DNA from: Betaproteobacteria bacterium
Lineage (GTDB): Bacteria; Pseudomonadota; Gammaproteobacteria; Burkholderiales; Usitatibacteraceae
NCBI GenBank assembly: GCA_016720925.1
Contig: JADKJR010000013.1
Coordinates: 52,243-116,242 of the forward strand
Length of the DNA: 64,000 nt
Direction of reading: 5' to 3'
Below the pieces are notes generated by a model. The model was not told the origin of the DNA. It ran no database searches and saw nothing but the letters and a program-made list of their open reading frames with translations. This document shows, in pieces, positions 7,029 through 23,800 of this stretch. Every line of letters starts with the position of its first letter. The stretch's first letter is position 1. A program made the position numbers and the translations under genes.

Positions 7029-7126
7029 TCCTGGTAGCAGAAAATGATCGCAACCCATCATCGTCACGGCCGGGTCCCGCATCATTTGATGGGGCAAGGG
7101 GCGGCATCTTGCTCGGGGCCTTTCAG

Positions 7127-7156
7127 CCCCCCCCCCCCCCCCCCCCCCCCCCCCCC
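7127..7156. repeat. C30 homopolymer tract
   Basis: Direct count gives C from 7127 to 7156. A complementary G6-C-G8 run lies at 7192-7206. Both sit in the convergent intergenic region between the NnrU stop (7028) and the cytochrome stop (7345). Confidence 0.9.
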
Positions 7157-7344
7157 ACGGCGGTCTCGATCGCGGCCCAAAAGCAGGGCGCGGGGGGCGG
7201 GGGGGGCGAGGCACACCGCGCGTTGCAGGCCGTGGGGCAGTGCCAGCCCGGGAGTCGGATAAGTAAAAAAACAAGGGACAGTGCATGCGCCATCCCTTGC
7301 TGTTTTGTCTGCCCGATCTTAATGAGGCGGGCGTAAATCTGTTT

Positions 7345-9265
7345 CTAGAGGTTCTTCGTATCGTGGCACGCTGCGCCACATTTGTTGGTGTAGGGAATCG
7401 GCATGGCCGCGCCCGGTGCGACGCCTTTCACGCCCTTGTTGTCCTTGCGCGGAACATCGTAGACGTGTGAGCTGATGTCATTGACCCAGTAGTTCTTGCC
7501 GTCCTTGCCATCCATGCCCTTGCCGAAGCCGGCGCCGGTCTGCGCGGTCTTGCTGTTGTGACAATCGATGCAGGTAATCTTGCTTGCATCGACCGTGCAC
7601 TTTGCTTTTTCCGCCAGATGTTTCTTCATGTCGTTGCTGCCCTTGTGGCAGGACGTGCAAACCTCGGAAGTCTTCGGATCGTGCTTCAACTGATGGAGGG
7701 ATTTGCCGTTTCCATGCGTATCGTGGCAGTCCGAGCAAGCCACCAGTTGGCTGCCGTTGCGGTACTTCTTGGCCTTGATCAAATCCGAGTAGGGCTGATG
7801 GTGGCTCTTGGAATGCAAACCATCCGCCCAAAAATCTTTTTCGCCACCATCTGGCCGGGTGGTGTATTCCTTGATGAATCTATTGCGCGAGGTGCCCGGC
7901 AACATCATCTTGTTATCCTTGTTGACCGGCTGGTCGTTGTTCAGGAAGCCCTGGGGTCGGCTGTGACACTGCCCGCATAGCACATCGGCGCGTTCCGCGG
8001 ACAGCTTGTTGGGACTGACAATGGTGGCAGGCATGTCGATCTCTTTCGCCTTGTCATGCACGGAGCCGGGCCCGTGGCAGGTTTCGCAACCCAGGTTCAG
8101 CTCATTGGGCTTGCCGTCGCCATCGATGTCCATCTCACCATTACGATCATTGGCTGAGCCGGCGATGTAATCGCCATTCGCTTTCTTCGTCAGCGTATAG
8201 CCGGCGTAATGGCAGGACGCACATTCCTTGTCAAAGGACTTGCCCACCGGAGGATCGGTCAGCTTTGCGGTCTGTTCATTGAAGAACCAGTCGGCGTGGT
8301 AATCGCGCCAGGGCTTGCGGCTGCGGTCGGCAAAACTGTCGTCGCCGTTCTGGTTGAACTGCACGAACGGGAACAGGTTGGCACCAACACGAACCAGGTA
8401 GCGCTGCTTGTACAGGCCGCCTCCGTAGGTCATATCCACCGAGTAGATGCGGGCCGGGTCCTTGGGATCCTTCACGTTTTCGGCGCGGAACCTGAGGTTG
8501 CCGCCATTATCCTTGTAGAAGGTTGCTGTAAAACTCACGCTGGACGCATCGGCGGGGGCCTTGGTGCTGATCTGGTATTTGTCGAACCCACGCGCCTTGT
8601 CGTAGCCATAGAACCAGAACTTGGTGCCGGCCATGAGCTTGTCGAGGCCCTTGTTGAATTCCGGGAAGCGGGAGAAGTCCTGCAGCTTGCTTTGCTTGCC
8701 GATGACCGTCATGCCCAGCCGGTGCAGGGGTTTTGGTGAAGTGTTTTTGATTCTCGTGGCACTCGATACAGGCCGAGCTGCCGATATAGGTGGCATTCGG
8801 TGGAACGTTGCCGGAAATCTTGATCAGCATGGGTGCGGCACCCAGTTCATCGGTGCCGAAAGCCTTTCGCGATTTGTCCCCGCCCGGCAGGTACTTGCTG
8901 GTGGCCGGTTCCACATAAACGAAGTATTTGCCGCCCGGCACGTTGGCAAAGCTGAACTCGCCCTTGGCGTTGGTTTTCGCATTCAGGTAGCGCCCGCGGT
9001 TGGCGGCCAGGTTGTCTTCCAGCGGTTCGTCATTCGTGGCGTCCGCCTTGACCTCGATCGGCGTCTTACCCATCGCCGCCACGTCGATCGACGGAATCAG
9101 CCAGACCGTGGCGTCGGCCACCTTGAGGAAAGTTTCCTTGCTGCCGTCTTCAACCACACCCTTGAACGGCATATTCGGATAGCTCTTTTCGCCGGTTAGC
9201 GTGCAGCCGTACATGATCAGGCCCAAACCCAATGCGAGCAATCCCGCGATAAATCTCTTCTTCAT
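7345..9265 (-). pseudogene. lipoprotein-type octaheme c-type cytochrome, interrupted by one frameshift (ORFs 8507..9346 and 7345..8796)
   Basis: ATG at 9265 after GGGGAGAAGG. Lipobox LIMYGC. The N-domain has a GEFSFANVPGGKYFVYVEP motif (CarboxypepD_reg-like). Haem sites are CIECH, CASCH, CETCH, CGQCH, CSDCH, CTSCH, CIDCH plus an atypical CGAACH. The reading frame changes at GGGGTTTT (8727-8734, plus strand). Removing 1 nt gives ...CIECHENQKHFTKPLHRLGMTV... Confidence 0.75.
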
Positions 9266-9459
9266 GACCTTCTCCCCAAGTGAAAAGCCGACAATACGTG
9301 CAGATACTATCCCCCGCCCCGCGCCGACTTGTTTGATTTGCATCAAACCGGTGGCACAAGTTCGGCCCTTGAGCTAATTTCGGCGCCGAAGTCAATGTGC
9401 TCCCGAGTGCCACGCAGGACAAAGACGCTATTTGTCGCGGAAGTACTTACACTACACGC

Positions 9460-10702
9460 ATGCCCCTGGACTTCAATTCGCATTCACTCTTGGCCGTTTG
9501 CATCGCACTCGGCATTGGCCTGCTCATCGGCGCCGAGCGTGAGCGGCGCAAAGGCGAGGGACCGGCGCGCGCGCCCGCGGGTATCCGTACCTTTGCCGTC
9601 GCCTCGCTCACGGGCGTGGTCGCCATGCTGCTGGGCGATGTGTTGTTGATGGCCGTTGCGGCATTGCTGGTGGGTGCGTTTGCGCTGCTGGCTTATCGCC
9701 GGGCAAGCACGGACGACCCGGGCATGACGACCGAGATCGCGCTGGTCCTGACATGCTTCATCGGCGGGCTCGCCGCGCGTGAACCGCTGCTCGCCGCCGG
9801 GCTTGGCGTTGCGCTGGCGGGTTTGCTGGCGGCGCGTGATCGCCTGCACCACTTTGTAAGCGGGGTGCTGAGCGAACGTGAATTGCACGATGCATTGCTG
9901 TTTTGCGCGGCCGCATTGATCGCACTGCCGCTGGCGCCCGATCGTTTTCTCGGCCCTTTTAACGCCATCAATCCGCACTCGCTGGTCGCCATCGTCGTGC
10001 TGGTGATGTCGGTCAGTGCGCTGGGCTACATCGCGTTGCGATTACTCGGCCCGCGCTACGGATTGCCGCTGGCGGGACTGGTATCGGGTTTCATTTCCAG
10101 CTCCGCGACCATACACGCAATGGGCCGGCGCACGCGCGAGGAACCCGCGCTGATGCCGGGACTGGTGGCGGGCGCGGTACTGTCATCGGTGGCGACCATC
10201 GTGCAACTATCGGCGGTGATTGCTTTTCTCGCGCCAACACTGCTCGCGCAACTCGCGCTACCGCTGGTGTTTGCCGGACTGGCGGCCGTGCTGTATGCCG
10301 CCTGGTTTACCCTGCGCCTTGCGCGCCGTTGACGCGGCACCTCGCGGCAGTGGACGGGCATTCGACCTGGTCGCCGCATTGACGTTTGCGGCATTGATCG
10401 GCGCGGTACTGACCATCGCCGCCGCCCTCAACGCCTGGGTAGGTGAGCGCGGCATGCTGGTAACCGCCGCGGCGTCCGGCCTTGCCGACGCGCATGCCGC
10501 CGCCGTCGCGACGGCATCAATGCTGGTGGCGGGGAAAATATCGTTGCCGCTCGCGGTGACCGCCGTGCTGACAGGATTGAGCACCAATGCGCTGGTCAAG
10601 GCGGTGCTGGCCTTCACGTCGGGGGGCGCGCCATATGCATTGCGGATCGTGCCAGGACTGGTGATGATGATCGCGGCAGCGTGGGTGGGCACCTTGATAT
10701 AG
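9460..10702 (+). pseudogene. MgtC/SapB-family plus DUF4010 membrane protein, apparent frameshift near 10325-10335
   Basis: N-terminus MPLDFNSHSLLAVCIALGIGLLIGAERERRKGEG is typical of MgtC-family proteins. ORFs 9397..10332 and 10220..10702 overlap and together give about 415 aa of continuous TM-rich sequence. Confidence 0.6.
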
Positions 10703-10795
10703 GGTGCGGCGCATTCGCCGGTGTTCCGACGATGCGCAAAGGGCGATTGCGGACGCCTGAGGGCTTATTCTCGAACGAACAAAGGAGCTGCACAA

Positions 10796-11494
10796 ATGCT
10801 AGGCGTTTTGGGGGGAATGGGTCCACTGGCCACCGCCGATTTTTTTTCGAAGCTGCTTGCAGCCACGCCCGCGAGTGACGATGCCGATCATGTGCCGGTG
10901 CTGATCCTCTCCGATCCACGCATTCCGCCGCGCCCTGTGGCCATTCTGGGCGATGGCGAGTCGCCATTGCAGGCGCTGCGTGCCGCGCGCGACAAGCTGG
11001 TCGCCGCCGGTGCCACCTTTTTGGCCATGCCCTGCAACACAGCGCATTTCTGGTTCGCGGACCTGACTGCGGATTGCCCGGTACCGTTCATCAGCATCAT
11101 CGACGCGACCTGCCGCGAAATCGCCTCACGGACGGCGCCTGGTAATGCGGTCGGGGTCATCGGAACGCGCGCGACGCTCGCCACGGGTCTCTACGATTCG
11201 CGTCTGGCTGCGCTGGGTTACGCATCGCACGTGCCGGACGAGGCTTCGATGATCCGCAACATTTTGCCGGCAATCGAGTTGGTCAAAGCGGGCAAGTCTG
11301 GACAAGGTGGTGCGCTACTTGAGCCGGTGGTCAGGCAGTTACTTGCCGACGGTGCCCAGCTGGTGATTCTCGCTTGCACCGAAATGCCGCTTGCACTGGA
11401 CGCCATCGACTCTCCGCTGCGCGAGCGTTGCATTGATTCGACCGCCGCACTGGCCCGCGCCTGTGTGACTTTCTGGCGTCGGCAACAAGCCTGA
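10796..11494 (+). CDS. aspartate/glutamate racemase family protein
   Basis: MLGVLGGMGPLATADFF... then ...MPCNTAHFW... then ...LACTEMPL (two catalytic Cys motifs). AAAGGAG RBS at 10781-10787. Confidence 0.8.
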   Translation: MLGVLGGMGPLATADFFSKLLAATPASDDADHVPVLILSDPRIPPRPVAILGDGESPLQALRAARDKLVAAGATFLAMPCNTAHFWFADLTADCPVPFISIIDATCREIASRTAPGNAVGVIGTRATLATGLYDSRLAALGYASHVPDEASMIRNILPAIELVKAGKSGQGGALLEPVVRQLLADGAQLVILACTEMPLALDAIDSPLRERCIDSTAALARACVTFWRRQQA

Positions 11495-11662
11495 CACAAG
11501 CGCACGAACTTGAAAGCCCGTTCAGCGCCACCAAGGCTTCGCGCCCGTGGGCGGTCTGCGCTGGATCAATTCGTCGCTCATTTTTACGCCCAATATCTCA
11601 TCCATGTCCGCCAACGTGCGCCGACGGGCACAAATATGCACGACCATTGATCCAAAGCAAAC

Positions 11663-11687
11663 TTGACGTTATATCAAAATCTATAAT
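11663..11687 (+). promoter_or_regulatory. candidate promoter/operator upstream of the octaheme cytochrome operon
   Basis: Perfect TATAAT at 11682-11687. Dyad TTGAC-GTTAT-ATCAA at 11663-11677, which is FNR/CRP-like but has a 5-nt rather than 4-nt spacer. Lies 50-70 bp before the GTG at 11736. Confidence 0.3.
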
Positions 11688-11735
11688 GAATTGTCCGTCT
11701 TTTGCGGATCTTTCGCCCTATCAGAAGGAGCATTC

Positions 11736-13346
11736 GTGAATCCCGCGTTTACCCGACTTGCGCTCGTTACGTGCTGCGCTGCCTGGCTGGCGGTTGCTGG
11801 CTCCGTGTTGGCCGAAGAAGCCAAAACGGAACCCAAGCCTCTCAAGCTCAATACCACCGCTGATCACAGCAAATTCAAGGAGTTGCAGGGCCAATTCAAG
11901 TCCGGCCCGGAAGTGACCAAAGCCTGCCTGGTCTGTCACACGGAGGCCGCTGGCCAGATTCACCGTACCAAACACTGGAAATGGGAATACCTGAACCCTG
12001 ATACGAAGCAAATGCTGGGTAAGAAAACCATCCTCAACAACTTCTGTATCTCGATTGCCTCCAACTATGCGTCCTGTACCAGCTGCCACATCGGTTACGG
12101 CTGGAAAGATGCCAACTTCGACTTCAAGTCCGAAGAAAATGTCGATTGCCTGGCCTGCCACGACACTACCGGCAACTACAAAAAACCACCGGGACTGGCC
12201 GGCAACGTCGTTACCAAGGAAATGGAATTCCCGGCCGGTTCAGGCAAGATCCTGAAGGCGATCGACCTCTCGAAAATCGCACAGAAAGTCGGCAAATCCA
12301 GCCGTGACACCTGCGGCGCCTGCCATTTCTTCGGCGGCGGCGGCGATGGCGTCAAGCACGGCGATCTGGATAGTTCCATGTCAGCGCCAGACAAAGAGCT
12401 TGATGTACACATGGATGCGACCGGGCTCGACTTCACTTGTGCCTCTTGCCACAAGACATCGAGCCATGATGTGGCTGGTAGCCGCTACACGCCGACCGCA
12501 AAAGATACCAAGGGTGCGCACATGCCCGGCCGGGCCAGCAACGGCAATCCGGCAAGCTGTGTGGCTTGCCACAACAACGCCCCGCACAAGAAAGAACCGC
12601 GCCTCAACCAGCACACCGCCAAGCTTGCCTGCCAAACTTGCCACATTCCAGCTTTTGCGCGCGGCGGTGTTGCCACCAAGATGACCTGGGACTGGTCCAC
12701 GGCGGGCCAAAAGGACGAGCAGGGCCAGCAAATCACCCGCAAGGACGCCAAGGGCCGCATCACCTATGAATCCCGCAAGGGTGACTTCACGCTGGCCGAA
12801 AACGTTACGCCGGAATATGCGTGGTTCAACGGGCATGTCGAGTACACGCTGCTTTCCGACAAGATCGAGAAAACCGACCAGCGCACGCCAATTAACAAAC
12901 TCGGCGGTAGCCCGACCGACGGCAAATCGCTGATCTGGCCGATGAAGGTTTTCCGTGGCTCGCAACCCTACGACCCAATCAACAAGACACTGATCACGCC
13001 ACACACCGCCGGCAATGACGACACCGGCTTCTGGAAAAACCTGGCGTGGGACAAAGCCATACCGGTCGGCATGAAGGATTCCGGCGCGCCGTATTCGGGC
13101 AAATTTGAATTCATCAATACCGAAATGTCGTGGCCGATCACCCACATGGTTGCGCCGAAAGAAAAAGCGCTGGGTTGTGTGGCATGCCACACCAAGGATG
13201 GACGGCTGGCCGGCATACAGGGTGTGTATTTGCCCGGGCGCGATGCCAACAAATTCGTCGACACCGCCGGCTGGGGCATTGTCCTGCTGACTTTGCTCGG
13301 CGTACTCGGCCACGGCGCGCTGCGTGTCGTGCACCGCAAGCGCTAA
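11736..13346 (+). CDS. otr: octaheme c-type cytochrome, tetrathionate reductase (OTR) family, with C-terminal membrane anchor
   Basis: Eight CxxCH motifs (CLVCH, CTSCH, CLACH, CGACH, CASCH, CVACH, CQTCH, CVACH). Blocks HRTKHWKWEY and CGACHFFGGGGDGVKHGD match what I recall of OTR. Sec signal ...AVAGSVLA/EE. C-terminal helix WGIVLLTLLGVLGHGAL followed by RVVHRKR. GTG start lies 5 nt after AAGGAG. Confidence 0.75.
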   Translation: MNPAFTRLALVTCCAAWLAVAGSVLAEEAKTEPKPLKLNTTADHSKFKELQGQFKSGPEVTKACLVCHTEAAGQIHRTKHWKWEYLNPDTKQMLGKKTILNNFCISIASNYASCTSCHIGYGWKDANFDFKSEENVDCLACHDTTGNYKKPPGLAGNVVTKEMEFPAGSGKILKAIDLSKIAQKVGKSSRDTCGACHFFGGGGDGVKHGDLDSSMSAPDKELDVHMDATGLDFTCASCHKTSSHDVAGSRYTPTAKDTKGAHMPGRASNGNPASCVACHNNAPHKKEPRLNQHTAKLACQTCHIPAFARGGVATKMTWDWSTAGQKDEQGQQITRKDAKGRITYESRKGDFTLAENVTPEYAWFNGHVEYTLLSDKIEKTDQRTPINKLGGSPTDGKSLIWPMKVFRGSQPYDPINKTLITPHTAGNDDTGFWKNLAWDKAIPVGMKDSGAPYSGKFEFINTEMSWPITHMVAPKEKALGCVACHTKDGRLAGIQGVYLPGRDANKFVDTAGWGIVLLTLLGVLGHGALRVVHRKR

Positions 13347-13387
13347 GTTGAACCAATGCGAAACATGACGAATTTCGGAGAACTCAC

Positions 13388-13984
13388 ATGACACAACGCG
13401 TTTACATCTTCAAGGCCTTCGAGCGCTTCTGGCACTGGTCACAGGCCGCCCTGATCATCTTCCTGATGCTCACCGGTTTTGAAATCCACGGCACTTATAC
13501 CAACTTCGGCTTCGAAAAGGCGGTGGCCTACCACGTCATCGCCGCCTGGTCGCTGGTGGGATTGTGGATTTTCGCGATCTTCTGGCATCTCACCACTGGC
13601 GAATGGCGCCACTACATTCCGACGAGGGAGAAAATATTCGTGATGGCGAAGTTCTATTCGTCCGGCATCTTCAAGCACGAACCCCATCCGTTCAAGCCGA
13701 GCCACATCAACAAACACAACCCCCTGCAACGGCTGACCTACCTCGCCATTCTCACGATGCTCAGTCCGCTCATCTGGTTTACCGGCTGGCTCTACCTTTT
13801 CTATGCCGACTGGGCCGCGTGGGGACTCACCAAACTGCAGCTGGAATGGATTGCCGTCGGCCACACCGTCGGCGCCTTCCTGATGCTGGCATTCCTGATT
13901 TCGCATCTTTATCTCGCCACCACGGGTCACAAGGTCACCTCCCAAGTCAAGACCATGATCACCGGCTGGGAAGAAGCCGAATAA
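13388..13984 (+). CDS. membrane dihaem cytochrome b (cytochrome b561 / Ni-Fe hydrogenase b-subunit family)
   Basis: 198 aa with four predicted TM helices carrying conserved His (FWHWSQ, AYHVIAAW, FWHL, ISHLY). N-terminus ...FERFWHW... is typical of PF01292-type proteins. Lies 41 bp after otr. Confidence 0.75.
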   Translation: MTQRVYIFKAFERFWHWSQAALIIFLMLTGFEIHGTYTNFGFEKAVAYHVIAAWSLVGLWIFAIFWHLTTGEWRHYIPTREKIFVMAKFYSSGIFKHEPHPFKPSHINKHNPLQRLTYLAILTMLSPLIWFTGWLYLFYADWAAWGLTKLQLEWIAVGHTVGAFLMLAFLISHLYLATTGHKVTSQVKTMITGWEEAE

Positions 13985-14016
13985 TCCGCAACCCTAAATC
14001 ACCAAGGAGCAAAACC

Positions 14017-14409
14017 ATGAAACTCAACCACACACTCGCCGCAGCAGCCGTATTGGCCTTGCTCGGCACTTCATTGTCCGCCCAGGCCTACGATGCCGAC
14101 TGGAAACGCGGTCGCGTCTATTACCGTGCTGTCTGCACCACTTGCCATCTCGCCGCGCCGATCGGGTCCATCAACCCAAGCACGAAAACCAAAGCCGAGT
14201 GGGCCGCTTATCTGAAGGCCGACAAGCACGCAAAAGGCAAGGATACGGTCAAGGAATATGTCAGCAAGGCCTACCGTGCCAAGATCAAAGCCGGCAACAA
14301 GGCCGCCGAGAAGTTTGCGGATGCGCCGGACCAGGAATTGCTGGATGACGTCGCGGCATTCCTCAACAAAGGCGCCAAGGACGGTGACGCACCGGCCAGT
14401 TGCAGCTGA
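14017..14409 (+). CDS. periplasmic monohaem cytochrome c
   Basis: ATG after AAGGAG (14004-14009). Signal peptide MKLNHTLAAAAVLALLGTSLSAQA. Single CTTCH motif. 130 aa. Confidence 0.7.
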   Translation: MKLNHTLAAAAVLALLGTSLSAQAYDADWKRGRVYYRAVCTTCHLAAPIGSINPSTKTKAEWAAYLKADKHAKGKDTVKEYVSKAYRAKIKAGNKAAEKFADAPDQELLDDVAAFLNKGAKDGDAPASCS

Positions 14410-14496
14410 TCGTTGCCCGCTGGCGGTGCGGCGCCATTCAGCCGCGGGCCCGCCGCGCGCGCGATATGTCGCCAACGATAAGCAAGGAGAAAACAG

Positions 14497-15741
14497 ATGA
14501 GCGCCAAGAGTGAAGCCGGCTGGCTGGCCGGCTTCAAATCGGACTACGAAAAAGTCGTCGTCAAGGAATGGTCACCTTTCGTCGGCGCCCTCCTGCTGAT
14601 ACTCGTGATCATCGGCCTGATGCTCAGTGGATTGGTGTGGGGCGTATTCGGTGGCGTCAAATTCTGGGGCGACTGGTTCAACAACCTTATCGGCCTCGGG
14701 CCACTGATCGGCGTTCCCCATGACCTGGATAATTTCATCATGCACCGCATGTCGCTGATGAATATCATGCTGGTGGTGGGTGCATTCGCGGCGGCATTGC
14801 TGTCGGGTCAGTTCACGCCCAATCTCGCGCCCAAACTGGAGTACATCTGGGCAGCCGTGGGTGGAAGCTTCCTCGGCATTGGCGCGGCACTTGCCGGCGG
14901 CTGCACAACCGGTGGCTTTTTCAATCCGGTGCTGCACTCCTCTCCCGCGGGCTGGGCGATGTGGGCCGGCCTGCTCGCGGGCGCGGCCATTGGCGTCAAG
15001 CTTTTGTTGTGGACGCTGGAAAATATCGACTGGGGAATGAAGGCGCCGCCCTCGATCAAGGTTCCGGATGGCGTCAAACGTAAATATCCCCTGCTGGGAC
15101 TTGTCGTGGTCGTCGGCGTGTTGATCTGGGCCACGAAATGGTACGGCTCAGCCAACGAGCAACTGGCGGCGCGTGCCGTGATTGTCGTGGCAGGATTCGC
15201 CATCGGTTACATCATGCGCAGCTCGCGCCTGTGCTTTGCCCGCGCCTTTCGCGAACCCTTCATTACCGGTGAGGGCGCGATGACCAAGGCCGTGATTCTG
15301 GCGCTGGCCGTGGGCATACCGATCGCCGCATTGTTGTTCCAGAAAAAGGTGATTGATCCCTATCTCGCCATTCCCGCCACGTTCTGGATGGGCTCACTGG
15401 TGGGCGGCTTCATTTTTGGTATCGGCATGGTGTTTGCCGGCGGCTGCGCATCGGGCTCGCTTTGGCGGATGGGCGAAGGCCAAAGCAAGCTTTGGGTGAC
15501 GATTTTCTTTTTCTCCTGGGCCGGATCCACCGCCAGCGCCCTGTTCAAGAAATTCGGCCTCACCTCGATTGACGAAACCAATGTCGAGACCTTTGAAATG
15601 ACCCGGGTCGGCTTTCAGGCCTACCTTCCCGAAATGCTCGGCAACTGGGGATGGACGCTGGCCATTGGTGGCGGCCTGCTGCTGCTCTGGTATGCACTGG
15701 TGCGCTACAACGAAACCACCGAAAAATTCACTCTGATGTAA
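14497..15741 (+). CDS. YeeE/YedE family sulfur-compound (thiosulfate) transporter
   Basis: Polytopic membrane protein with the two conserved Cys loops LAGGCTTGGFF and FAGGCASGSLWR that are characteristic of YeeE/YedE. Confidence 0.8.
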   Translation: MSAKSEAGWLAGFKSDYEKVVVKEWSPFVGALLLILVIIGLMLSGLVWGVFGGVKFWGDWFNNLIGLGPLIGVPHDLDNFIMHRMSLMNIMLVVGAFAAALLSGQFTPNLAPKLEYIWAAVGGSFLGIGAALAGGCTTGGFFNPVLHSSPAGWAMWAGLLAGAAIGVKLLLWTLENIDWGMKAPPSIKVPDGVKRKYPLLGLVVVVGVLIWATKWYGSANEQLAARAVIVVAGFAIGYIMRSSRLCFARAFREPFITGEGAMTKAVILALAVGIPIAALLFQKKVIDPYLAIPATFWMGSLVGGFIFGIGMVFAGGCASGSLWRMGEGQSKLWVTIFFFSWAGSTASALFKKFGLTSIDETNVETFEMTRVGFQAYLPEMLGNWGWTLAIGGGLLLLWYALVRYNETTEKFTLM

Positions 15742-15769
15742 ATTCTGTCGCACGTTCAAGGAGAACCTT

Positions 15770-16933
15770 ATGAATGCCAAACGCATGACCCTGCTGACCG
15801 CGATACTCGCGGCCCTCGCCATCAGTCCCGTCGTATTCTCGACGGCCGCGGTTGCACAGCCCGCCGCCATCCAGGTCAAGGATGGCTACTACAAGACGCT
15901 GGTTGATTTCGATTTCATGCGCCAGAACGTCGATATCCCGCTAAAGAAGGGCGTGATGATCATCGACTCGCGTCCCGCCGCGCGCCAATACGATCCGGGC
16001 CACATCCCCGGTGCGGTAAATATTCCTGACAGCCAATTCGACAAAAATGTCGACAAACTTCCCGCCGACAAGGCCACGCTGCTGCTCTTCTATTGTGGTG
16101 GTCTCGAATGCATGCTCAGCCACAATTCCGCATTCAAGGCCGAAAAACTGGGCTACACCAATATCAAGGTCTATGCGGCCGGCTCACCGGACTGGAAGGC
16201 GAAGGGCGCTCAGATATCGGTGTCCGCCGCGCATGTCAAGAAGCTGATCGATGAAAAAGCCGCTTACGTACTGATCGACGCACGACCGAAACGCGTCGCC
16301 GAGAAAGGCATGATTCCAACCGCCCTCAACATTTCCGACAGCGAGTTTGACAAGAACATCGACAAGCTTCCTGCCGACAAAGCCACGCCACTGATCTACT
16401 ACTGTGGCGGCATGGAATGCGTGTTGTCCGACAAATCGGCGGAGAAGGCCAAGAAGCTTGGTTATACCAATGTCCTCACCTATCCGCCGGGCTATCCGGA
16501 GTGGGAAAAACTGCACGGCGCCCCCGCCACGGCAACAGCCGCAACTTCCGCGTCCTCCGCCACCAGCGGCGGCGTCAAGTCCGCAGCCGCATTGGTACCA
16601 GGAAAAGAAAAGGGCTCGGTCACTGTCGCCTCGTTTGAAAAGGTCTGGAAGGAAAATCCCGGATCGATCATGCTGGTCGATGTGCGTGACGCAAAAGAGT
16701 TCGCTGCCGGAACCGCCAAGGGCGCCGTGAATATCCCCATCAACGAGCTTGAGAAGAAACTTTCTACGTTGCCCACCGACAAACCCGTGGTCTTTATCTG
16801 CGGTACGGGCGCCCGCTCTGGCGAGGCCTATGACACCGTGAAGCTACTGGGTGGAAAAGTACAGGCTTACTTCATCGATGCCGACATCAAGTTTGCCGGC
16901 AATGGCGAGTACACGATCACCGAAAAGAAATAG
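15770..16933 (+). CDS. exported triple-rhodanese-domain sulfurtransferase
   Basis: Sec signal MNAKRMTLLTAILAALAISPVVFSTAAVA. Three rhodanese-like repeats with active-site loops YCGGLECMLS, YCGGMECVLS and ICGTGARSG. Repeats 1 and 2 are near-duplicates (GHIPGAVNIPDSQFDKNVDKLPADKATLL versus GMIPTALNISDSEFDKNIDKLPADKATPL). Confidence 0.85.
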   Translation: MNAKRMTLLTAILAALAISPVVFSTAAVAQPAAIQVKDGYYKTLVDFDFMRQNVDIPLKKGVMIIDSRPAARQYDPGHIPGAVNIPDSQFDKNVDKLPADKATLLLFYCGGLECMLSHNSAFKAEKLGYTNIKVYAAGSPDWKAKGAQISVSAAHVKKLIDEKAAYVLIDARPKRVAEKGMIPTALNISDSEFDKNIDKLPADKATPLIYYCGGMECVLSDKSAEKAKKLGYTNVLTYPPGYPEWEKLHGAPATATAATSASSATSGGVKSAAALVPGKEKGSVTVASFEKVWKENPGSIMLVDVRDAKEFAAGTAKGAVNIPINELEKKLSTLPTDKPVVFICGTGARSGEAYDTVKLLGGKVQAYFIDADIKFAGNGEYTITEKK

Positions 16934-17023
16934 TTCGCCATCTACACAACACTGTTGCCAACGGCCGGGGTGCGCTCTTCCCCGCCTCGGCCAATTCGTT
17001 TTATTTTCCGGAGTTCAAAAACA

Positions 17024-17446
17024 ATGAAAAAGCTGTCTATCGTCCTCGCGCTGGGCCTCTCGTGCGCATTGCCCCTTCACGCGGAAACCGCGACGGAACT
17101 TTTCGTCACACTCAACTCCGGCAACCCGCAAACGCAGGGCATGGCGTTAGTACTGGCGACGCAAGCCGTCGAACAGAAAGCCGGCGTGCGCGTGCTGCTA
17201 TGCAGCGAGGGCGGCCAACTGGCGGTCAAGAACAAGGAATCCACGCTCCTCAAGCCACGCAACGTGACCCCCAAGGACATGCTGCAAGGCCTGTTGAAAG
17301 CCGGCGCCAAGGTCGAAGTCTGCGCCTTGTTCCTGCCTAACAGCGACTGGAAACCCGCCGACCTGATGGAAGGCATCAGCGTTGCAAAACCTGGCGACGT
17401 GGCTGCGCACCTGCTGAAGCCGAATGTGAAAGCGCTGTCGTACTGA
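17024..17446 (+). CDS. exported DsrE/DsrF-like family protein
   Basis: Signal peptide MKKLSIVLALGLSCALPLHA. About 120-aa mature domain with conserved Cys contexts RVLLCSEGG and VEVCALFL, resembling DsrE-fold sulfur carriers. Confidence 0.6.
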   Translation: MKKLSIVLALGLSCALPLHAETATELFVTLNSGNPQTQGMALVLATQAVEQKAGVRVLLCSEGGQLAVKNKESTLLKPRNVTPKDMLQGLLKAGAKVEVCALFLPNSDWKPADLMEGISVAKPGDVAAHLLKPNVKALSY

Positions 17447-17473
17447 ATGCCGGTGGTTGCATTTGAATCGTGA

Positions 17474-17492
17474 GGCAGGTCAGGAACCTGCC
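17474..17492. terminator. hairpin between convergent genes
   Basis: GGCAGGT-cagga-ACCTGCC (7-bp stem) 28 bp after the DsrE-like stop. No clear U-tract. Confidence 0.3.
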
Positions 17493-17533
17493 ATCGATTG
17501 CGATTGACTGATAGCGATTCCGGCAATCAACAT

Positions 17534-17601
17534 AAAACCCTAGATCTGGCGGGGCTTTCCGGGCATTTTAGGCCGGAAAGCCGCGCCAGTCTTTGTGTTT
17601 T
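17534..17601 (+). repeat. REP-like extragenic element, copy 3 (best palindrome)
   Basis: CTGGCGGGGCTTTCCGG (17546-17562) pairs with CCGGAAAGCCGCGCCAG (17573-17589), 16 of 17 positions. Ends AAAACCCTAG...CTTTGTGTTTT are inverted. Abuts the stop (17604) of the minus-strand ORF. Confidence 0.75.
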
Positions 17602-17603
17602 AT

Positions 17604-18105
17604 TCAATCGACATTGCGCAGGCCGCCAGAAAGTCCGAGGCTCGTCGCGGCCCAGAATTCTTTTGCGCGCGCCGCGCCACGCAACTGCCCAATGATGTTG
17701 CGCACGCGCTCGGCATGGCTGACAAATTCCGCGACTGTCTTGACGCTCAATGGCGACGGCGAGACCATCGCCTTCCGGCCCGAGCAAAGAGACTCGATCT
17801 TCTCGGGGACCCTTGGCATCGGCCAGATTGAAGGTCGCCGAAACGCTAGCGGCGATATTGGCAGCGCCCGGTAATGCGCCAGCGGCAGCCGCCTGCCCTC
17901 CCACGGGGGAAATAAAACCATCGCGCCACAATTTCTCTATCGACGCAAATCCATCGCCCGGGATCTTGGACAGCAACACCTCCACTGTCTGCTTGCCGTC
18001 GACCTGAATGAGTGCGATGCGATGTCGAAAATCGATGTGAAAGGCGCGCTTCTCGATTTCTTCGGTGCCCTTCGCTTTCTTTTCAAAGATGTCGCCGGTG
18101 TCCAT
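17604..18105 (-). pseudogene. hypothetical protein, apparent frameshift near 17745-17760
   Basis: The N-terminal part (MDTGDIFEKKAKGTEEIEKRAFHIDFRHRIALIQVDGKQTVE...) is in the frame of ORF 17527..18156. The protein-like C-terminus (...VKTVAEFVSHAERVRNIIGQLRGAARAKEFWAATSLGLSGGLRNVD) is in the frame of ORF 17604..17921. The first frame past the junction is Arg/Cys/Trp-rich and runs through repeat copy 3. Confidence 0.4.
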
Positions 18106-18375
18106 GAAGCCCTCTGATCGCACGATCATGAATGGCCATTGTGTTTCCGCGGCCAAGGCGGGTCAATGTACTTGTGCCCGCGATACATACCCGCGATGAG
18201 CACCCGGCTGTGCGCGCACGACACCTCGAGATTCAGGCTCGCTGGGGACAAACAACATGACATCACGAAGAAGTGAACGGAAACCGGCAAGCGCGCGCTT
18301 GCCTGCACATGCGCTCGCGTGCATATACGTATTCGGCACATTTTCAGGAATAAGCAGGGTTGCGCAAATAAAAAC

Positions 18376-18407
18376 CTGAAATTGCCCATCGCAATGGGCA
18401 ATTTCAG
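18376..18407 (-). terminator. perfect 14-bp inverted repeat, terminator-like on the minus strand
   Basis: CTGAAATTGCCCAT-cgca-ATGGGCAATTTCAG. On the minus strand the stem is followed by GTTTTTATTT. It lies in the divergent region between the hypothetical gene (start 18105) and the HD-GYP gene (start 18582). Confidence 0.45.
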
Positions 18408-18581
18408 CGGAAGTTACGCGAATTCACCGCGCGGGACGATCTGCCGCCATCAAGAAAAGCTGCGCGCTGCCGAAAGCATGGTAGGGCGCCTTCATCGTCC
18501 GCCGGCGCAAAAACGCCGCCGGTGAGCGGATCCATTCCGGCATGGAAGCACACGTCCCCATCAACCATCGCAGGCACGCCA

Positions 18582-19664
18582 ATGCACACTGAACCCATGA
18601 CCGTCCTAATCATCGATGACAACGCGACGAACGTCCTGTTGCTGTCCGCGCTGGCGCAGACGGTCGCTGGCTCGCGTCCGGTCACCTTTGAAGATCCGCT
18701 GGAGGCAATCGGCTGGTGCACCTGCAACATGCCCGACCTGGTGCTGGTTGATTACATGATGCCGAACATGGACGGCCTCGAATTCATCCGCCGATTTACC
18801 GCCATGCCGGGTCGCACCGATATTCCGATCATCATGGTCACAACCGAAAATGAAAAGGCGATACGGCGCGAAGCGCTGACCGTCGGCGCCACGGAATTTC
18901 TCGCCAAGCCGGTGGACACCATTGAGTTTCGCACCCGCGTGCGCAATCTTCTGGCCCTGCGGCGCTCGCAAAAAATGCTCCGGGATCGCGCGACGCTGCT
19001 GCAGACCGAAGTTGAATGCGCGGTGGAGAAAATCATTCAGAGCGAACGCGACCTGATCCTGCGTCTTTCAAAGGCGGTCGAATACCGTGATTCGGAAACG
19101 GGATCGCACGTTTCGCGCATGTCGAAATACTCCGCGCTGATTGCAAAGGAATTGATGCTTCCGGCGGAATTTCAGGAGATGATGCTGCTCGCGTCACCAC
19201 TTCACGATGTCGGCAAAATCGGCATTCCCGATCACATCCTGTTAAAGCCCGGACGCCTTGATGACGGCGAGCTCACCATCATGCGGCGGCACGCGGAAAT
19301 CGGCGAACGCCTGCTGGCTGGCAGCGAATCCCCACTGGTGCAATTGGCGGCGGAAATCGCCGGATCCCACCACGAAAAATTCGACGGGTCCGGTTACCCG
19401 CGCGGAATCGCCGGCGAGAAAATTCCCCTTTCCGGGCGCATAGTTGCCGTCGCCGATGTTTTTGACGCCTTGACCTCGACACGTCCATACAAAAAGGCGT
19501 GGACAGTTGAAGCCGCCCGAAAATTCATCCTGGAGCAAAGCGGCGGTCACTTCTGCTCGCTGTGCGTGATTGCGTTTTTTGGTGCCTGGAGCGAAATCCT
19601 CGACATCCGGCGGCAATACCCTGATGAAACGCATGAGTCCGAGCAATTGGAGAACATGCTATGA
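18582..19664 (+). CDS. response regulator with HD-GYP phosphodiesterase domain (RpfG-like)
   Basis: REC domain (VLIIDDN..., DLVLVDYMMPNMDG). HD-GYP motifs HDVGKIGIPD and GSHHEKFDGSGYPRG. Alternative ATG at 18597. Confidence 0.85.
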   Translation: MHTEPMTVLIIDDNATNVLLLSALAQTVAGSRPVTFEDPLEAIGWCTCNMPDLVLVDYMMPNMDGLEFIRRFTAMPGRTDIPIIMVTTENEKAIRREALTVGATEFLAKPVDTIEFRTRVRNLLALRRSQKMLRDRATLLQTEVECAVEKIIQSERDLILRLSKAVEYRDSETGSHVSRMSKYSALIAKELMLPAEFQEMMLLASPLHDVGKIGIPDHILLKPGRLDDGELTIMRRHAEIGERLLAGSESPLVQLAAEIAGSHHEKFDGSGYPRGIAGEKIPLSGRIVAVADVFDALTSTRPYKKAWTVEAARKFILEQSGGHFCSLCVIAFFGAWSEILDIRRQYPDETHESEQLENML

Positions 19665-20806
19665 AAACCCAACAGGTCTTGCTGAAAGACACGCTCAACC
19701 TTGACGCGGATCTGCAAAGCCTTTCGGTCTTGAGTCCCGGATTGGTGCTGGTATTTGGCGGCGTTGGGTTCTTCTCGAATCCGGCGCTGGTTGGCGCACT
19801 GCGCCGGCGATTTCCACACGCGACGTTCGCTGGTTGCTCGACGGCGGGCGAAATACACGGCAATCGTGTTTACGACAGCACTGCCAGTGTCACGGCGATC
19901 GAGTTTGATCGAACCATGGTTGACGTCAAATCCATTCGCATTGCGTCGATGCCGGAATCGTTTGCGGTTGGCGCGCGGCTGGCGCAAGCGCTGCCGGCTG
20001 AAAATCTCACCGCGGTTCTGCTCTTTGGCACCGGTGTGGCGATCAATGGCAGCGCGTTGGTTGCCGGGCTGCAATCGATACTTCCAGGCGAGGTGAAAAT
20101 CTCCGGCGGGCTCGCGGGTGATGGCGGAAAATTTGTTCGCACCTGGACGCTGGGACCATCGGGTGCCACGGATGATCACGTGGTGGCGGTCGGACTCTAT
20201 GGCCGCGACCTGCATTTCGCTTGCGGGTCATTCGCGGGCTGGGTACCGTTCGGCCCGGCGAGGAAAGTCACGCGCTGCGATGAGAATGTGCTGTTTGAGC
20301 TCGATGGCGAGCGCGCACTGGATGTCTACAAGCGCTACCTCGGTGAGTATGCCGAGAAACTTCCCGCATCCGGCCTGTTGTTTCCATTCGAGATGCTGAG
20401 TGAAACGCAGGAAACGCTCGGCGTCTATCGCACCATCCTCGGCATCGATGAGGCCGCGGGATCGCTGACGCTGGCCGGCGACATCAACCCCGATGGATAT
20501 CTGAAACTGATGCATGCCAGCACCGACAAATTGATTGACGGTGCGGAAACAGCCGCGCAGATGGCGGGGGAAAATGGCCTGCTGAAGGGCGATGGGTCGC
20601 TGGCGATCCTGGTCAGTTGCGTGGGCCGAAAGATCATCATGGGCGACCGCGTCGAAGAAGAAGTTGAAGTCGTGGCGGACCAATTGCCCGTCGGGACAGC
20701 ACTCACCGGCTTCTACTCCAATGGCGAGATCTCCAGCACCGAGATGCATGGCGGATGCCGCTTGCATAACCAGACCATGACAATCAGCTGGATGGCGGAA
20801 ACCTGA
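19661..20806 (+). CDS. FIST N/C domain sensory protein
   Basis: 381 aa. The ATG overlaps the upstream stop (ATGA). Layout and the blocks ...FAGCSTAGEI... and ...FYSNGEIS... resemble FIST_N/FIST_C proteins. Call is from memory. Confidence 0.7.
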   Translation: MKTQQVLLKDTLNLDADLQSLSVLSPGLVLVFGGVGFFSNPALVGALRRRFPHATFAGCSTAGEIHGNRVYDSTASVTAIEFDRTMVDVKSIRIASMPESFAVGARLAQALPAENLTAVLLFGTGVAINGSALVAGLQSILPGEVKISGGLAGDGGKFVRTWTLGPSGATDDHVVAVGLYGRDLHFACGSFAGWVPFGPARKVTRCDENVLFELDGERALDVYKRYLGEYAEKLPASGLLFPFEMLSETQETLGVYRTILGIDEAAGSLTLAGDINPDGYLKLMHASTDKLIDGAETAAQMAGENGLLKGDGSLAILVSCVGRKIIMGDRVEEEVEVVADQLPVGTALTGFYSNGEISSTEMHGGCRLHNQTMTISWMAET

Positions 20807-20807
20807 C

Positions 20808-23800
20808 ATGCACCGCACCCTCGCCCGGCAACTTAAGCGCTGTACCGGTATCGGTACCGAAGACGCGCGAGCGAGCCTGACCAACGCAATCGCCAGCGCC
20901 AACCTGCCAGCCGACTCCGCACTGGTTCCATTCCTGTCCGGGCTGGGCGACTTCATCGATCGAATCGACAGCACCTACGAGCAGTACGACCGCGACCTCG
21001 ATCTGCGCACGCGCAGCCTGGAGATCAGTTCCGGCGAACTCAGCGGCGTCAATCAGCGCATGCGCCAGGATCTGGCGAGCCGCGATCGCATTCTCGAGTC
21101 GCTTGTCGATGCCGCCTCGGCATTGATGGCGCATAGCAAGGAGGTGGTGACGATTCCCGACCAGGGCGATCTGGAAGGCATGTCGGCGCTGCTCAGGGCA
21201 CTGATCAAGCAGCAGGAGAAAAATCATATCGAGCTGATCAATCATCGCTTTGCCATCGATCAGCACGCCATCGTCAGCGTGACCGATACGGCGGGGGTCA
21301 TCCGTTACGTCAACGACAAGTTCTGCGAAATCAGCGGCTACTCGCGCGAGGAGCTGATCGGCCAGAATCACCGGATGGGCAAGTCGGATTTTCATTCCGA
21401 TGCGTTTTTCAGGGAACTCTGGGAGACCATCTCGGCCGGCAATGTCTGGCATGGCGAAATTCGCAACATGAAACGCAATGGCGAGTGCTACTGGGTTGAT
21501 GCGACAATCGTGCCGCTCAAGGACCAGGACGGCAAGCCGGAGGAGTTTGTGGCGATCCGTACCGAGATCACGGAACGCAAGCTGCTGGCGGAAAAAATTG
21601 CGTCGAGCGAAGCGCAATACCGGTCGGTGGTCGACAGTGTGCGCGAAGTCATCTTCCGCATGGATGCCGGTCTTCGCTTCACATTCCTCAACCCGGCGTG
21701 GACGCAGATTACCGGCCTCGCCGTGGAGCACACCATTGGCCAGCGCTTCCCGGAATTTATCCCCGCCGAGGACCGCCACACGTTGCTGATGCTGATCCAT
21801 GAGCATGCATCAGGCGACAAATGCATCAATCACTGCGAAGTTCGCTACATCCATCGGGATGGAACCACGCGCTATCTGGAAGTTGACGCACGGATCGAGA
21901 CCGATGAGTCCGACAACGTGACTGGCCTTGCCGGGACGCTCAATGACATGACCGAGCGGCGGCAGGCCACCGAGTTGCTGCGCGAGCAACTGCAACTGGT
22001 CGACGCCCTGTTCGAGTCCATTCCGGTGCCGGTCGTGATGAAGGGCGTTGATGGCCGCTACCTGCGTTTCAACAAGGCGTATTGTGACTTGCTCGACAGT
22101 ACGCCAGACCGGCTCTTTGGCAAGACCGCCTACGACATGCTCAATGACGTCGCGGCCCGCACGCATCGCGAAATTGACGAAGCACTGATCAACCATCCGG
22201 GCTCTCGCACCTACGAGGTGCGGCAGCGCGTCGGTCACGGGCGCGTCATTGATGCGCTGGTAAGCAAGGCGACGCTTTGCGACAAGGAAGGCAACGTCAC
22301 CGGGCTGGTCGGCACCATCGTCGACATGTCGGATCGCAAAGCGGCCGAACGAGCGATGCTGCACGCGAAAGAAGTGGCGGAATCGGCCAACTCCGCCAAG
22401 AGTGATTTCCTCGCCAACATGAGCCACGAAATTCGCACGCCGATGAACGGCATTATCGGCATGACCGACCTGGTGCTGGAAACGCAACTTGATCCGGTGC
22501 AGCGGGAACAACTGGAAGTGGTCAAGGCGTCGGCGGGCGGGCTTCTCACCATCATCAACGACATTCTCGATTTTTCCAAAATCGAAGCCGGCAAACTCAG
22601 CATTGAATCGATTCCCTTTGATTTTGGACGCGTTGTTTCGGACGCGCTGCGGCCACTGGCGCTGCGCGCGCACCAGAACGGCCTGGCGTTCATCGTTGAA
22701 AACAACGTGGCACTCGCCACCAGACCGATCGGCGATCCCGGACGGATTGCGCAAGTGCTGATCAACCTTGTGGGCAATTCAATCAAGTTCACGAAACAGG
22801 GCAAGGTCCTGGTTCGTGCCGACACCGTGGACAGCGATGAACACGAGGCGCTTATCCGCATAAGTGTCGCAGATACCGGCATCGGCATCGCGCCGGAAAA
22901 ACAGGCTGCTATTTTTGAGGCCTTCTCGCAGGCGGATGCTTCAACCACGCGCAAATATGGCGGCACAGGACTCGGCTTGTCGATCACGCGCCAGCTGGTT
23001 GAAATCATGGGTGGCTGCATCGGCGTGCAAAGTGAGCCGGGCAATGGCGCAACGTTTTCGGTCGAGCTGACACTCCCGCTCGAGGCCCGCCGCGCGCCAC
23101 CGGCGGATGCGAAGCCGCCCGCAATTTCCGTCACTGCTCCCAACAGCGTACCGTCATCGGTTCTTAATGTACTGCTGGTCGAAGACAACGCAATCAACCA
23201 GATGCTGGCAAAGACGATCCTTGTCAAGCGCGGCCATCAGGTGACCGTGGCCAAGGATGGCATGGTCGCGCTCGAATGCCATGCTGGCAGAAAATTCGAC
23301 GTCATCCTGATGGATATGCAGATGCCGGTCATGGATGGCATTACTTCCGCGAACCATATTCGCCGCCGCGAAATGGAGACGAACGCACCGCGCACCCCGA
23401 TCATCGCCATGACCGCGAATGCGCGCGAGGAGGATCGCGAGGAGTGTATCGAGGCCGGCATGGACGACTATATTTCCAAGCCATTCAAGAGCGAGGTGCT
23501 GTTCGACGTGCTATCGCGGCATTGTCCCTCGGCGACGGCCGGCAGCGAAAGCATCTCCTGTTTGTGCGCGAGCCACGACAATGCGGCGGCATTCTCCTCC
23601 AGCGCTGCATTGGACAGCTTTGATTATGAGCGCGCGTTGCGGTCCGCGGACGCCGAAGTCGTCGGCCTGATCGCGACTCACTTTCTCGAACAGGCGCCCA
23701 GGCAATTGCGGGACATGCATGCAGCATGGAACGCGCAAGACCTGGCCAAGCTTCACCGGCTTGCACATTCACTTGGCGGTCTGTTTGCGAACTTCAACGC

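Follow-up and report, generated by a model that had tools for sequence, protein, structure and literature searches.

A candidate periplasmic sulfur redox module built around an octahaem cytochrome of the OTR family and a cytochrome b in a betaproteobacterium

In this work, we analyzed a cluster of six genes at positions 11736-17446 of a 64,000-nucleotide stretch of contig JADKJR010000013.1 from a Betaproteobacteria bacterium (assembly GCA_016720925.1, positions 52,243 to 116,242 of the forward strand); this whole stretch is the window, and its positions are counted from its first letter. The genes, g1 to g6, encode an octahaem cytochrome c of the octahaem tetrathionate reductase (OTR) family, a dihaem cytochrome b, a small monohaem cytochrome c, a YedE/YeeE-type channel, a triple rhodanese (Rhd3) and a DsrE-fold protein, the first, third, fifth and sixth of which are predicted to be exported. 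They form a real, conserved operon, whose conserved core is OTR plus cytochrome b and whose sulfur-relay genes are clade-specific add-ons. We favor, with somewhat better than even confidence, a reading in which OTR and cytochrome b together exchange electrons between quinone and the sulfur bound to cysteines of periplasmic carrier proteins, and in which the channel moves a sulfur species across the membrane. The six genes would then encode a single periplasm-facing sulfur redox module, in which exported OTR, held at the membrane by its C-terminal helix, would sit beside the cytochrome b as a complex and the two would pass electrons between the quinone pool and the active-site haem of OTR. Rather than on a free anion alone, OTR would act on sulfur bound to cysteines in the DsrE-fold protein, in the triple rhodanese and at the flexible C-terminus of the small cytochrome c. 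On such a carrier OTR would make or break an S-S bond, giving or consuming carrier-Cys-S-S-SO3(-) ('half-tetrathionate') or carrier-Cys-S-Sn(-), that is, the tetrathionate/thiosulfate chemistry of OTR in vitro transferred to a protein, which may be likened to SoxXA acting on SoxY. The resulting sulfur species would be carried over the inner membrane by the channel. Action of OTR on carrier-bound sulfur is the most economical reading because the recurring partners of the pair are all cysteine-based periplasmic proteins. The single sulfur reaction documented for OTR, cleavage of the S-S bond in tetrathionate, would carry over readily to such a thiosulfonated carrier or to a carrier persulfide or polysulfide.

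The assignment of the core pair is clear. The first gene (11736-13346, plus strand, 536 amino acids) matches the OTR model TIGR04315 with 638 bits (cut-off 375) and PF11783 with 238.7 bits, the next multihaem family, NrfH, reaching 28.7 bits, and its product can be aligned from end to end with 1SP3, the OTR structure from Shewanella (392 bits). Its eight CxxCH motifs, starting at residues 64, 114, 138, 193, 235, 275, 299 and 481, are all invariant in a diverse OTR alignment, for which 1.8 billion cluster representatives were searched. The block GKKTILNNFC aligns to GKKNSINNFC of 1SP3 (motif GKKxxxNNFC), and Lys96 falls on the haem-ligand lysine of that structure, which we take to be Lys56, provided to the active-site haem from outside a CxxCK motif; Lys96 is the predicted ligand of this haem. 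Lys96 and Cys104, the latter lying eight residues further on and being the only non-haem cysteine of the mature protein, are invariant in 81 homologues. The protein carries a Sec signal peptide and a C-terminal hydrophobic membrane helix (residues 507-532, encoded at 13254-13331), and such a hydrophobic tail is kept in 77 of the 81 homologues. Within the helix, His526 (codon 13311-13313, in GVLGHGA) is invariant in all 81, and this residue could contribute to a site for haem b or quinone that OTR has in common with the cytochrome b. The latter, of the FdnI/PhsC/HyaC type, is encoded by the second gene (13388-13984, plus strand, 198 amino acids), which scores 91.5 bits against PF01292 (gathering threshold 30.1); its best NCBIfam match is the PhsC-like NF011582 with 115 bits, under the cut-off of 204, and judged by its sequence it is not an equivalog of PhsC. 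Among 42 homologues, five histidines never vary, namely His16, His34, His49, His159 and His173, the last two being 14 residues apart. In FdnI, four histidines on transmembrane helices 1, 2 and 4 bind two haems b. His16, His49, His159 and His173 fit an FdnI-like spacing, leaving His34 as the fifth invariant histidine. An earlier note on this DNA, made from its letters alone, had described an anchored OTR-family protein with eight CxxCH motifs, followed by a b-type cytochrome with conserved histidines, and both descriptions stand; no other multihaem family fits the first gene better.

The same pair recurs in other genomes together with changing sets of thiol proteins. With the diverse OTR alignment mentioned above we retrieved 80 OTR loci from species-representative genomes; they are the best 80 among at least 574, each with no less than 49% identity to the query. 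Neighbors were counted over 83 loci by applying hidden Markov models to six-frame translations of the DNA up to 7 kb from OTR. Gene calls in the survey are six-frame open reading frames (ORFs), L-numbers label its loci, and many of these are contigs of metagenome-assembled genomes (MAGs) with doubtful taxon labels, such as 'Bordetella parapertussis' or 'Actinomycetota'. A cytochrome b gene lies directly 3' of OTR in 77 of the 83 loci, the six others being incomplete contigs. Near OTR we found an exported rhodanese in 32 loci, a g3-type cytochrome c in 21, YeeE in 19, DUF302 in 13, a TlpA/redoxin-like protein in 10, the g6 protein in nine and DUF3373 in eight. The nearest named relatives are Sulfuritalea. 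Sulfuritalea hydrogenivorans sk43H (AP012547.1, 277.8-298.3 kb) has all six genes in identical order, as do several MAGs whose flanks are unrelated, so that the neighborhood described in the earlier note is conserved. Elsewhere the order is OTR, cytochrome b, DUF3373, a 107-residue protein, YeeE, Rhd3 and g6, amid unrelated flanks; in Azonexus, Aromatoleum and Azoarcus it is cytochrome c, Rhd3, OTR and cytochrome b; in Methyloversatilis-like loci the YeeE-Rhd3 pair is inverted; and in Marinobacter a different, single-domain exported rhodanese lies upstream of OTR-cytochrome b and a g6 homologue (46-48% identity) downstream, without YeeE. Other OTR clades encode exported TlpA/redoxin-like or glutaredoxin-like proteins. 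Accessory genes thus stand upstream, downstream or inverted depending on the lineage, while on the OTR tree the sets are clade-specific and stable; because they keep together in varied orders, we conclude that the sulfur-relay add-ons are kept by selection and not by chance adjacency. The hosts include lithotrophs on sulfur or iron (Sulfuritalea, Sulfuricellaceae, Sulfurimicrobium, Gallionellaceae, Sideroxydans and Sedimenticola) as well as heterotrophic denitrifiers, and are mostly of the ubiquinone type.

This recurrence also bears on the possibility that the octahaem enzyme is a nitrite or hydroxylamine reductase, serving detoxification or dissimilatory nitrate reduction to ammonium, and that the sulfur-relay genes are unrelated neighbors. 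In vitro, OTR homologues work best on nitrite and hydroxylamine (PMC12949373; PMC6449678), denitrifiers are numerous among the hosts going by their record titles, and an NnrU gene lies at 6435-7028, 4.7 kb upstream of the cluster. However, no nitrogen-cycle gene is conserved beside OTR across the 83 loci, the neighbors that do recur are thiol and sulfur-carrier proteins in several independent arrangements, and in Beggiatoa the neighbors are phs/psr genes (PMC6449678). We consider this explanation improbable.

The six intact ORFs all lie on the plus strand, and with starts supported by ribosome-binding sites the gaps from g1 to g6 are 41, 32, 87, 28 and 90 bp, exactly as first described. The start of g1 was set at GTG 11736, which has GAAGGAG 6 nt upstream, in preference to TTG 11691, since alignments with close homologues begin at residue 1. 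The TATAAT hexamer at 11682-11687 (plus strand), 48 nt upstream of this start and seen in the sequence as a candidate -10 box only, is indeed present, but the placing of the operon behind it as a promoter did not hold equally well: its sole -35-like hexamer, TTGACG, is set off by a spacer of 13 nt, and a promoter scan did not call the site, so that a full sigma-70 promoter is unsupported. A terminator scan found no plus-strand terminator-like site in the gaps or just after g6. The layout might alternatively reflect two abutting units, a respiratory operon of OTR, cytochrome b and cytochrome c followed by a sulfur import or assimilation operon of YeeE, rhodanese and DsrE-fold protein starting in the 87-bp gap. 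Promoters could fit in the 87-bp (g3-g4) and 90-bp (g5-g6) gaps, and many loci have the cytochrome c and the rhodanese without YeeE. Against such a division, the rhodanese and the g3-type cytochrome c stay by OTR-cytochrome b despite the loss of YeeE and the reshuffling seen in Azonexus, Aromatoleum and Azoarcus, the Marinobacter g6 follows OTR-cytochrome b where there is no YeeE, and the plus-strand gaps are free of terminator-like sites. We give two separate units little credence.

Further evidence for carrier-bound sulfur comes from the C-termini of the accessory proteins. Every cysteine of the mature g3 to g6 proteins sits within a conserved functional motif, and four non-homologous exported families that adjoin OTR-cytochrome b share a conserved cysteine at or near the C-terminus, preceded by small residues. 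The first is the g3 cytochrome c family, with a tail of the type P[AS]xC[SNEQ], represented in the window by g3 (14017-14409, plus strand, 130 amino acids; ...PASCS). The second, found after DUF3373, is a family of 107 residues ending in KKTAGC (L004 at 7045-7368, L017, L020, L028, L029, L040 and L061), and the third comprises DUF302 proteins, encoded immediately upstream of OTR, whose Gly-rich tail ends in GGGGGC (13 loci; for example L032, 9398-9952). The fourth is SoxY itself (PF13501, 88-101 bits, with a twin-arginine translocation signal; tail GAGGCG, for example L044, 12075-12599), accompanied by SoxZ (PF08770). SoxY and SoxZ are encoded directly 3' of cytochrome b in five loci (L043, L044, L055, L076 and L079), and in the first three of these the order is OTR, cytochrome b, SoxY, SoxZ, Rhd3, g3-like cytochrome c and YeeE, so that the set following SoxYZ is also found in the window. 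A terminal-Cys protein is present in 42 of the 83 loci and any exported thiol protein in 51. In a crude control with signal-peptide-like ORFs of 80-260 amino acids, the share with a cysteine among the last three residues was 19% up to 5 kb from OTR and 7% at greater distances. The C-terminal cysteine of SoxY is the arm that brings sulfur intermediates into enzyme active sites (PMC5336275), and otr adjoins soxY-S3/soxZ in lucinid symbionts (PMC11237559). The terminal-Cys pattern beside OTR resembles, by analogy, this swinging arm.

In the window the candidate for such an arm is g3. It matches PF13442 only marginally (27.4 bits, cut-off 27.0) and has a single CTTCH, an AQA-type signal peptide and no methionine in the mature protein. 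His71 and the penultimate Cys129 (...PASCS-COOH) are invariant, the C-terminal cysteine being retained by every homologue, even at 39-47% identity. The structure model, with a mean predicted local distance difference test score (pLDDT) of 69, shows an unstructured tail; only one of five models was reasonable, and its best fold matches in the PDB are class I cytochromes c at E>4. The earlier description of a small exported monohaem cytochrome c stands, but to treat it as a plain electron carrier passes over the invariant penultimate cysteine. No window protein is SoxY (PF13501 with a GGCGG-type C-terminus), and since the terminal-Cys feature is all that the two have in common, g3 may at most work like SoxY without being a member of that family.

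The fifth and sixth genes are expected to supply the other carrier cysteines. The g5 rhodanese (15770-16933, plus strand, 387 amino acids) shows three Pfam rhodanese stretches with 151 bits in total, so that its first description as a three-domain rhodanese was right. Its loops are C109-GGLE-C114 in domain 1 and C212-GGME-C217 in domain 2, both within YCGGxxCxLS (the C-x4-C loops being encoded at 16094-16111 and 16403-16420), and C344-GTGARS in domain 3, the only one with the canonical C-x-x-G-x-R-S/T rhodanese loop. These loops are kept in 17 loci, with signal or lipoprotein signal peptides throughout. The best NCBIfam match is TsoB (NF045694) with 122 bits (cut-off 805), and the corresponding loop of the selenoprotein TsoB is U-x4-U (PMC13188914), which suggests that the C-x4-C of g5 is a redox-active pair rather than a plain sulfurtransferase site. 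As for g6 (17024-17446, plus strand, 140 amino acids), it has no Pfam match even at E<=5, PF02635 not being hit, and only one of the 120 homologues listed has a precomputed PF02635 match; its homologues are annotated 'DsrE family protein' or 'predicted peroxiredoxin'. The 14 best PDB matches of its AlphaFold model (pLDDT 87) are without exception DsrE, YchN, DsrEFH or TusBCD structures or a design on that fold (Foldseek probability 1.0 for 3PNX, 1JX7 and 2HY5; E 7e-8 to 4e-3), and because it matches only such structures the DsrE-fold label is right at the level of the fold, although by sequence g6 is not a member of PF02635. Cys60 and Cys100 are invariant, and Cys100 comes immediately after strand 3 of the model. 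Sequence searches of the PDB with g6, single or as a profile, returned designer pentatricopeptide repeats with zero significant stretches, and these hits were discarded as a repeat-summation artefact. The N-termini of g1, g3, g5 and g6 are of the textbook n-h-c/AXA kind when read by eye, and for the rhodanese and the DsrE-fold protein the Sec signal peptides proposed earlier are present on this reading.

The channel gene g4 (14497-15741, plus strand, 414 amino acids) matches PF04143 with 145 bits. Its product has only three cysteines, Cys136, Cys246 and Cys317, which correspond to C293, C22 and C91, that is, to all three transport cysteines of TsuA (6LEO), so that the YeeE/YedE assignment with its conserved cysteines holds. 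The halves are swapped relative to TsuA, residues 231-351 resembling TsuA 7-126 and residues 39-154 resembling TsuA 205-311, and their order is colinear with that of the YedE/FdhT model NF033796 (104 bits, cut-off 350); other NCBIfam scores are also far under their cut-offs (98 against 400 and 66 against 645). A TusA-like (YeeD) partner had been said to be missing nearby, and we likewise found no GxCPxP-type TusA/YeeD-like ORF in the cluster or the window with a motif scan, which is a weak test and gave one spurious match. As a separate observation, the cluster of S. hydrogenivorans has an additional seventh gene of 141 residues, and such a gene follows g6 in Sulfuritalea-type loci (L002 at 10471-10896, also L007, L008, L009 and L057). 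Its Cys-containing protein of 141-148 amino acids, in which we found no signal peptide and no Pfam or NCBIfam match, could be a cytoplasmic partner of the channel; a tblastn search of the window gave no counterpart of the 141-residue Sulfuritalea protein, nor of a multihaem cytochrome encoded upstream of OTR in L004.

The best NCBIfam matches of g4 and g5 have a selenium flavor (YedE/FdhT 104 bits, TsoB 122 bits), which raises the possibility of a module for selenium or tellurium oxyanions, with OTR reducing selenite, the rhodanese and the DsrE-fold protein carrying selenium and the YedE-like channel moving it. The C-x4-C of g5 stands just where TsoB has its U-x4-U (PMC13188914), and selenium transport by YedE-like proteins is described for Methanococcus (cited in PMC11582611). 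Nevertheless, both scores are far under the cut-offs of 350 and 805, the cluster is without selenocysteine, selD or any other selenium gene, related loci carry SoxYZ and classical sulfur oxidisers are among the hosts. We regard a selenium module as very improbable.

A closer competitor to carrier-bound sulfur keeps the sulfur chemistry but has OTR-cytochrome b handle a free anion, either reducing tetrathionate with ubiquinol or oxidising thiosulfate to tetrathionate, while the exported thiol proteins would bring no substrate but would scavenge or repair cysteines of the periplasm that react with tetrathionate or polythionates, or would salvage the sulfur through YeeE for assimilation. We know of no sulfur couple other than tetrathionate/thiosulfate that ubiquinol can reduce. 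DsrE3A-type proteins are said, in work attributed to Liu et al. 2014, to form Cys-thiosulfonates with tetrathionate. The TlpA-like and glutaredoxin-like reductases of other OTR clades would suit a repair role, OTR reduces free tetrathionate in vitro (cited in PMC12949373), and TsuA/YeeE imports thiosulfate for assimilation (PMC11582611). On the other side, deletion of otr left tetrathionate metabolism unaffected in two Shewanella strains (PMC12949373), and repair leaves unexplained both the SoxY-like terminal cysteine in four unrelated families and the presence of SoxYZ between cytochrome b and rhodanese. On this balance we think a free-anion enzyme rather unlikely.

Several points nevertheless weigh against our preferred reading of a carrier-bound substrate. 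Once purified, OTR from Shewanella needs no carrier to turn over tetrathionate, nitrite and hydroxylamine in free form (cited in PMC12949373). Thiol accessories are lacking within 7 kb in 32 of the 83 loci, several of them on incomplete contigs, so that a carrier must be either non-obligatory or encoded elsewhere, and as the loci are the best 80 of at least 574, the survey fractions do not hold for the OTR family as a whole. Within the cluster, Cys129 of g3 could simply be the sixth haem ligand, the predicted export of g1, g3, g5 and g6 depends on signal peptides recognized by eye, and the motif scan revealed no cytoplasmic acceptor for YeeE in the window. Besides, hhalign of the g6 alignment with an E. 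coli TusD sequence gave a probability of 0.1, too low to be of use, so that Cys100 is at most a putative equivalent of the DsrE/TusD Cys78.

With regard to the direction of electron flow in a carrier-dependent module, we lean slightly towards oxidation or import, with electrons going to quinone or to cytochrome c. An oxidative role is at least as likely as a reductive one because SoxYZ occurs in some related loci and most hosts are ubiquinone-type denitrifiers and sulfur or iron lithotrophs. To our knowledge, SoxYZ is found in oxidative pathways only. With ubiquinone, only a reduction of the tetrathionate type is thermodynamically easy, and oxidation of sulfane sulfur by quinone or of thiosulfate by cytochrome c is feasible. 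From the earlier proposal of a quinol-linked sulfur module with exported persulfide carriers, the protein families, the export and the conserved neighborhood were upheld, the direction, the substrate and a quinol-linked as opposed to a quinone-reducing character being at most putative.

The cluster can be compared with several known systems. With Shewanella oneidensis OTR (1SP3) the window protein shares homology over the full length, the eight CxxCH motifs and the GKKxxxNNFC block with its lysine and cysteine; it differs in that it, like 77 of 81 relatives, adds a C-terminal membrane helix with an invariant histidine, followed by a cytochrome b, whereas the Shewanella enzyme is described as a soluble protein, presumably fed by CymA (PMC12949373). 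Exported sulfur-relay neighbors are likewise a feature of the window type, undescribed for Shewanella OTR. The Sox system offers a similar picture of a periplasmic c-type cytochrome enzyme encoded beside exported proteins with a flexible C-terminal cysteine, and some OTR loci do carry SoxY and SoxZ. However, OTR is unrelated to SoxXA, the cytochrome b provides a link to quinone, the cluster is without SoxB or SoxCD, and instead of SoxY the window has a cytochrome c, a rhodanese and a DsrE-fold protein as candidate carriers. In Wolinella, the periplasmic rhodanese Sud feeds sulfane sulfur to PsrABC, a membrane-bound, quinone-linked respiratory enzyme, in which catalysis falls to a molybdoenzyme subunit and the anchor is of the NrfD type; Sud consists of one domain and has one cysteine. 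The window would likewise pair a periplasmic rhodanese with a quinone-linked enzyme, although g5 has three domains, two of them with C-x4-C. As a Sulf_transp protein that keeps the three transport cysteines of TsuA, g4 resembles the TsuA-TsuB (YeeE-YeeD) and SoxT1 systems (6LEO; PMC11582611), from which it differs by the lack of a nearby TusA-like partner, by the opposite order of its halves and by neighbors that are exported and not cytoplasmic. The g6 protein has the alpha/beta fold of DsrEFH, TusBCD and DsrE3 and invariant cysteines, of which an active-site equivalence is at most putative, but these relay proteins are cytoplasmic, while g6 is a single gene and not an E/F/H trio, has no PF02635 match and, because of its signal peptide, would be periplasmic. 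Domains 1 and 2 of g5 match TsoB, a rhodanese/DsbD fusion, best among NCBIfam models, although g5 is without a DsbD domain or selenocysteine.

The pairing of OTR with a 'thiosulfate reductase cytochrome b' is already on record (PMC6449678). In open-access full-text literature we found no description of a unit of OTR, cytochrome b, cytochrome c, YedE/YeeE, Rhd3 and DsrE-fold protein, in agreement with the earlier note, which knew of none, and there we found no exported DsrE-fold protein and no terminal-Cys pattern either, the sole earlier link that we came across being that of otr with soxY-S3/soxZ (PMC11237559). That note had also called the physiological role of OTR unresolved, and this remains apt, OTR not being required for tetrathionate respiration in Shewanella ANA-3 (PMC12949373, 2026).

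Some other features of OTR loci and of the window are worth recording. Small ArsR/SmtB-like regulators with paired cysteines, identified by eye and by clustering, lie near OTR in L020 (8358-8702), L027 (7391-7783), L080 (9405-9716) and L051 (12915-13316), and recall sulfane-sulfur-sensing repressors of the SoxR/sHdrR type. A gammaproteobacterial OTR clade without thiol accessories (L046, L049, L058, L059, L064, L067 and L072) has two more multihaem cytochromes upstream, one of the PF13447 'seven times multi-haem' type and one c554-like, with small membrane proteins ending in NC[EQ]H nearby. In the window, Pfam annotation of about 27 other genes brought no further sulfur genes, so that the cluster appears as an island among unrelated genes. 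Upstream, on the minus strand at 7345-9346, there are overlapping ORFs, one with six CxxCH motifs (7345-8796) and one (8507-9346) with a single CxxCH, whose N-terminus looks like that of a lipoprotein and which gives a weak CarboxypepD_reg/transthyretin-like match; the two may be one multihaem lipoprotein gene, frameshifted or with a mis-set start, and we found no homology between it and the divergent cytochrome upstream of OTR in L004. Downstream, the approximately 1.07 kb after g6 (17447-18521) holds no convincing gene, its one long ORF (17527-18156, minus strand, 209 amino acids) being without Pfam match. It is followed at 18522-23948 by a response regulator with an HD-GYP-type domain, a FIST-domain protein and a hybrid PAS histidine kinase of 1046 residues with Hpt. 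These three signalling proteins may or may not govern the cluster, and they are not conserved beside OTR in other loci. Finally, at 41605-42474 and unrelated to the cluster, a 289-residue protein consists almost entirely of leucine-rich repeats (LRR_8, 129 bits) and adjoins two cyclic nucleotide monophosphate-binding-domain proteins and a resistance-nodulation-division efflux system.

Altogether, it is tempting to speculate, although we hold this wider view to be tentative and on the doubtful side, that OTRs are carrier-dependent enzymes, which together with cytochrome b would make up a quinone-linked periplasmic sulfur pathway parallel to Sox, and that rhodanese, DsrE-fold protein and YedE-like channel form an import route for sulfane sulfur. 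SoxY, the Gly-tailed DUF302 proteins, the 107-residue protein ending in KKTAGC and the terminal-Cys cytochrome c would then be interchangeable carriers of different lineages, and the import route would serve sulfur oxidisers with rDsr or sHdr by bringing sulfur from the periplasm to the cytoplasm. OTR was crystallised in 2004, and its role, open for 20 years, becomes directly testable with the concrete and cheap hypothesis of a carrier-bound sulfur substrate, behind which stands a three-part pattern of an obligatory cytochrome b, a membrane anchor with an invariant histidine and clade-specific exported Cys proteins. The route by which sulfane sulfur passes from the periplasm to the cytoplasmic oxidation machinery has been described as unknown (PMC11582611), and a rhodanese and a DsrE-fold protein, both exported and encoded next to a YedE/YeeE channel, make a candidate for it. 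It also follows that matches to "Otr" in metagenomes, which are routinely read as tetrathionate or nitrite reduction, may mislead for many freshwater and groundwater Betaproteobacteria.

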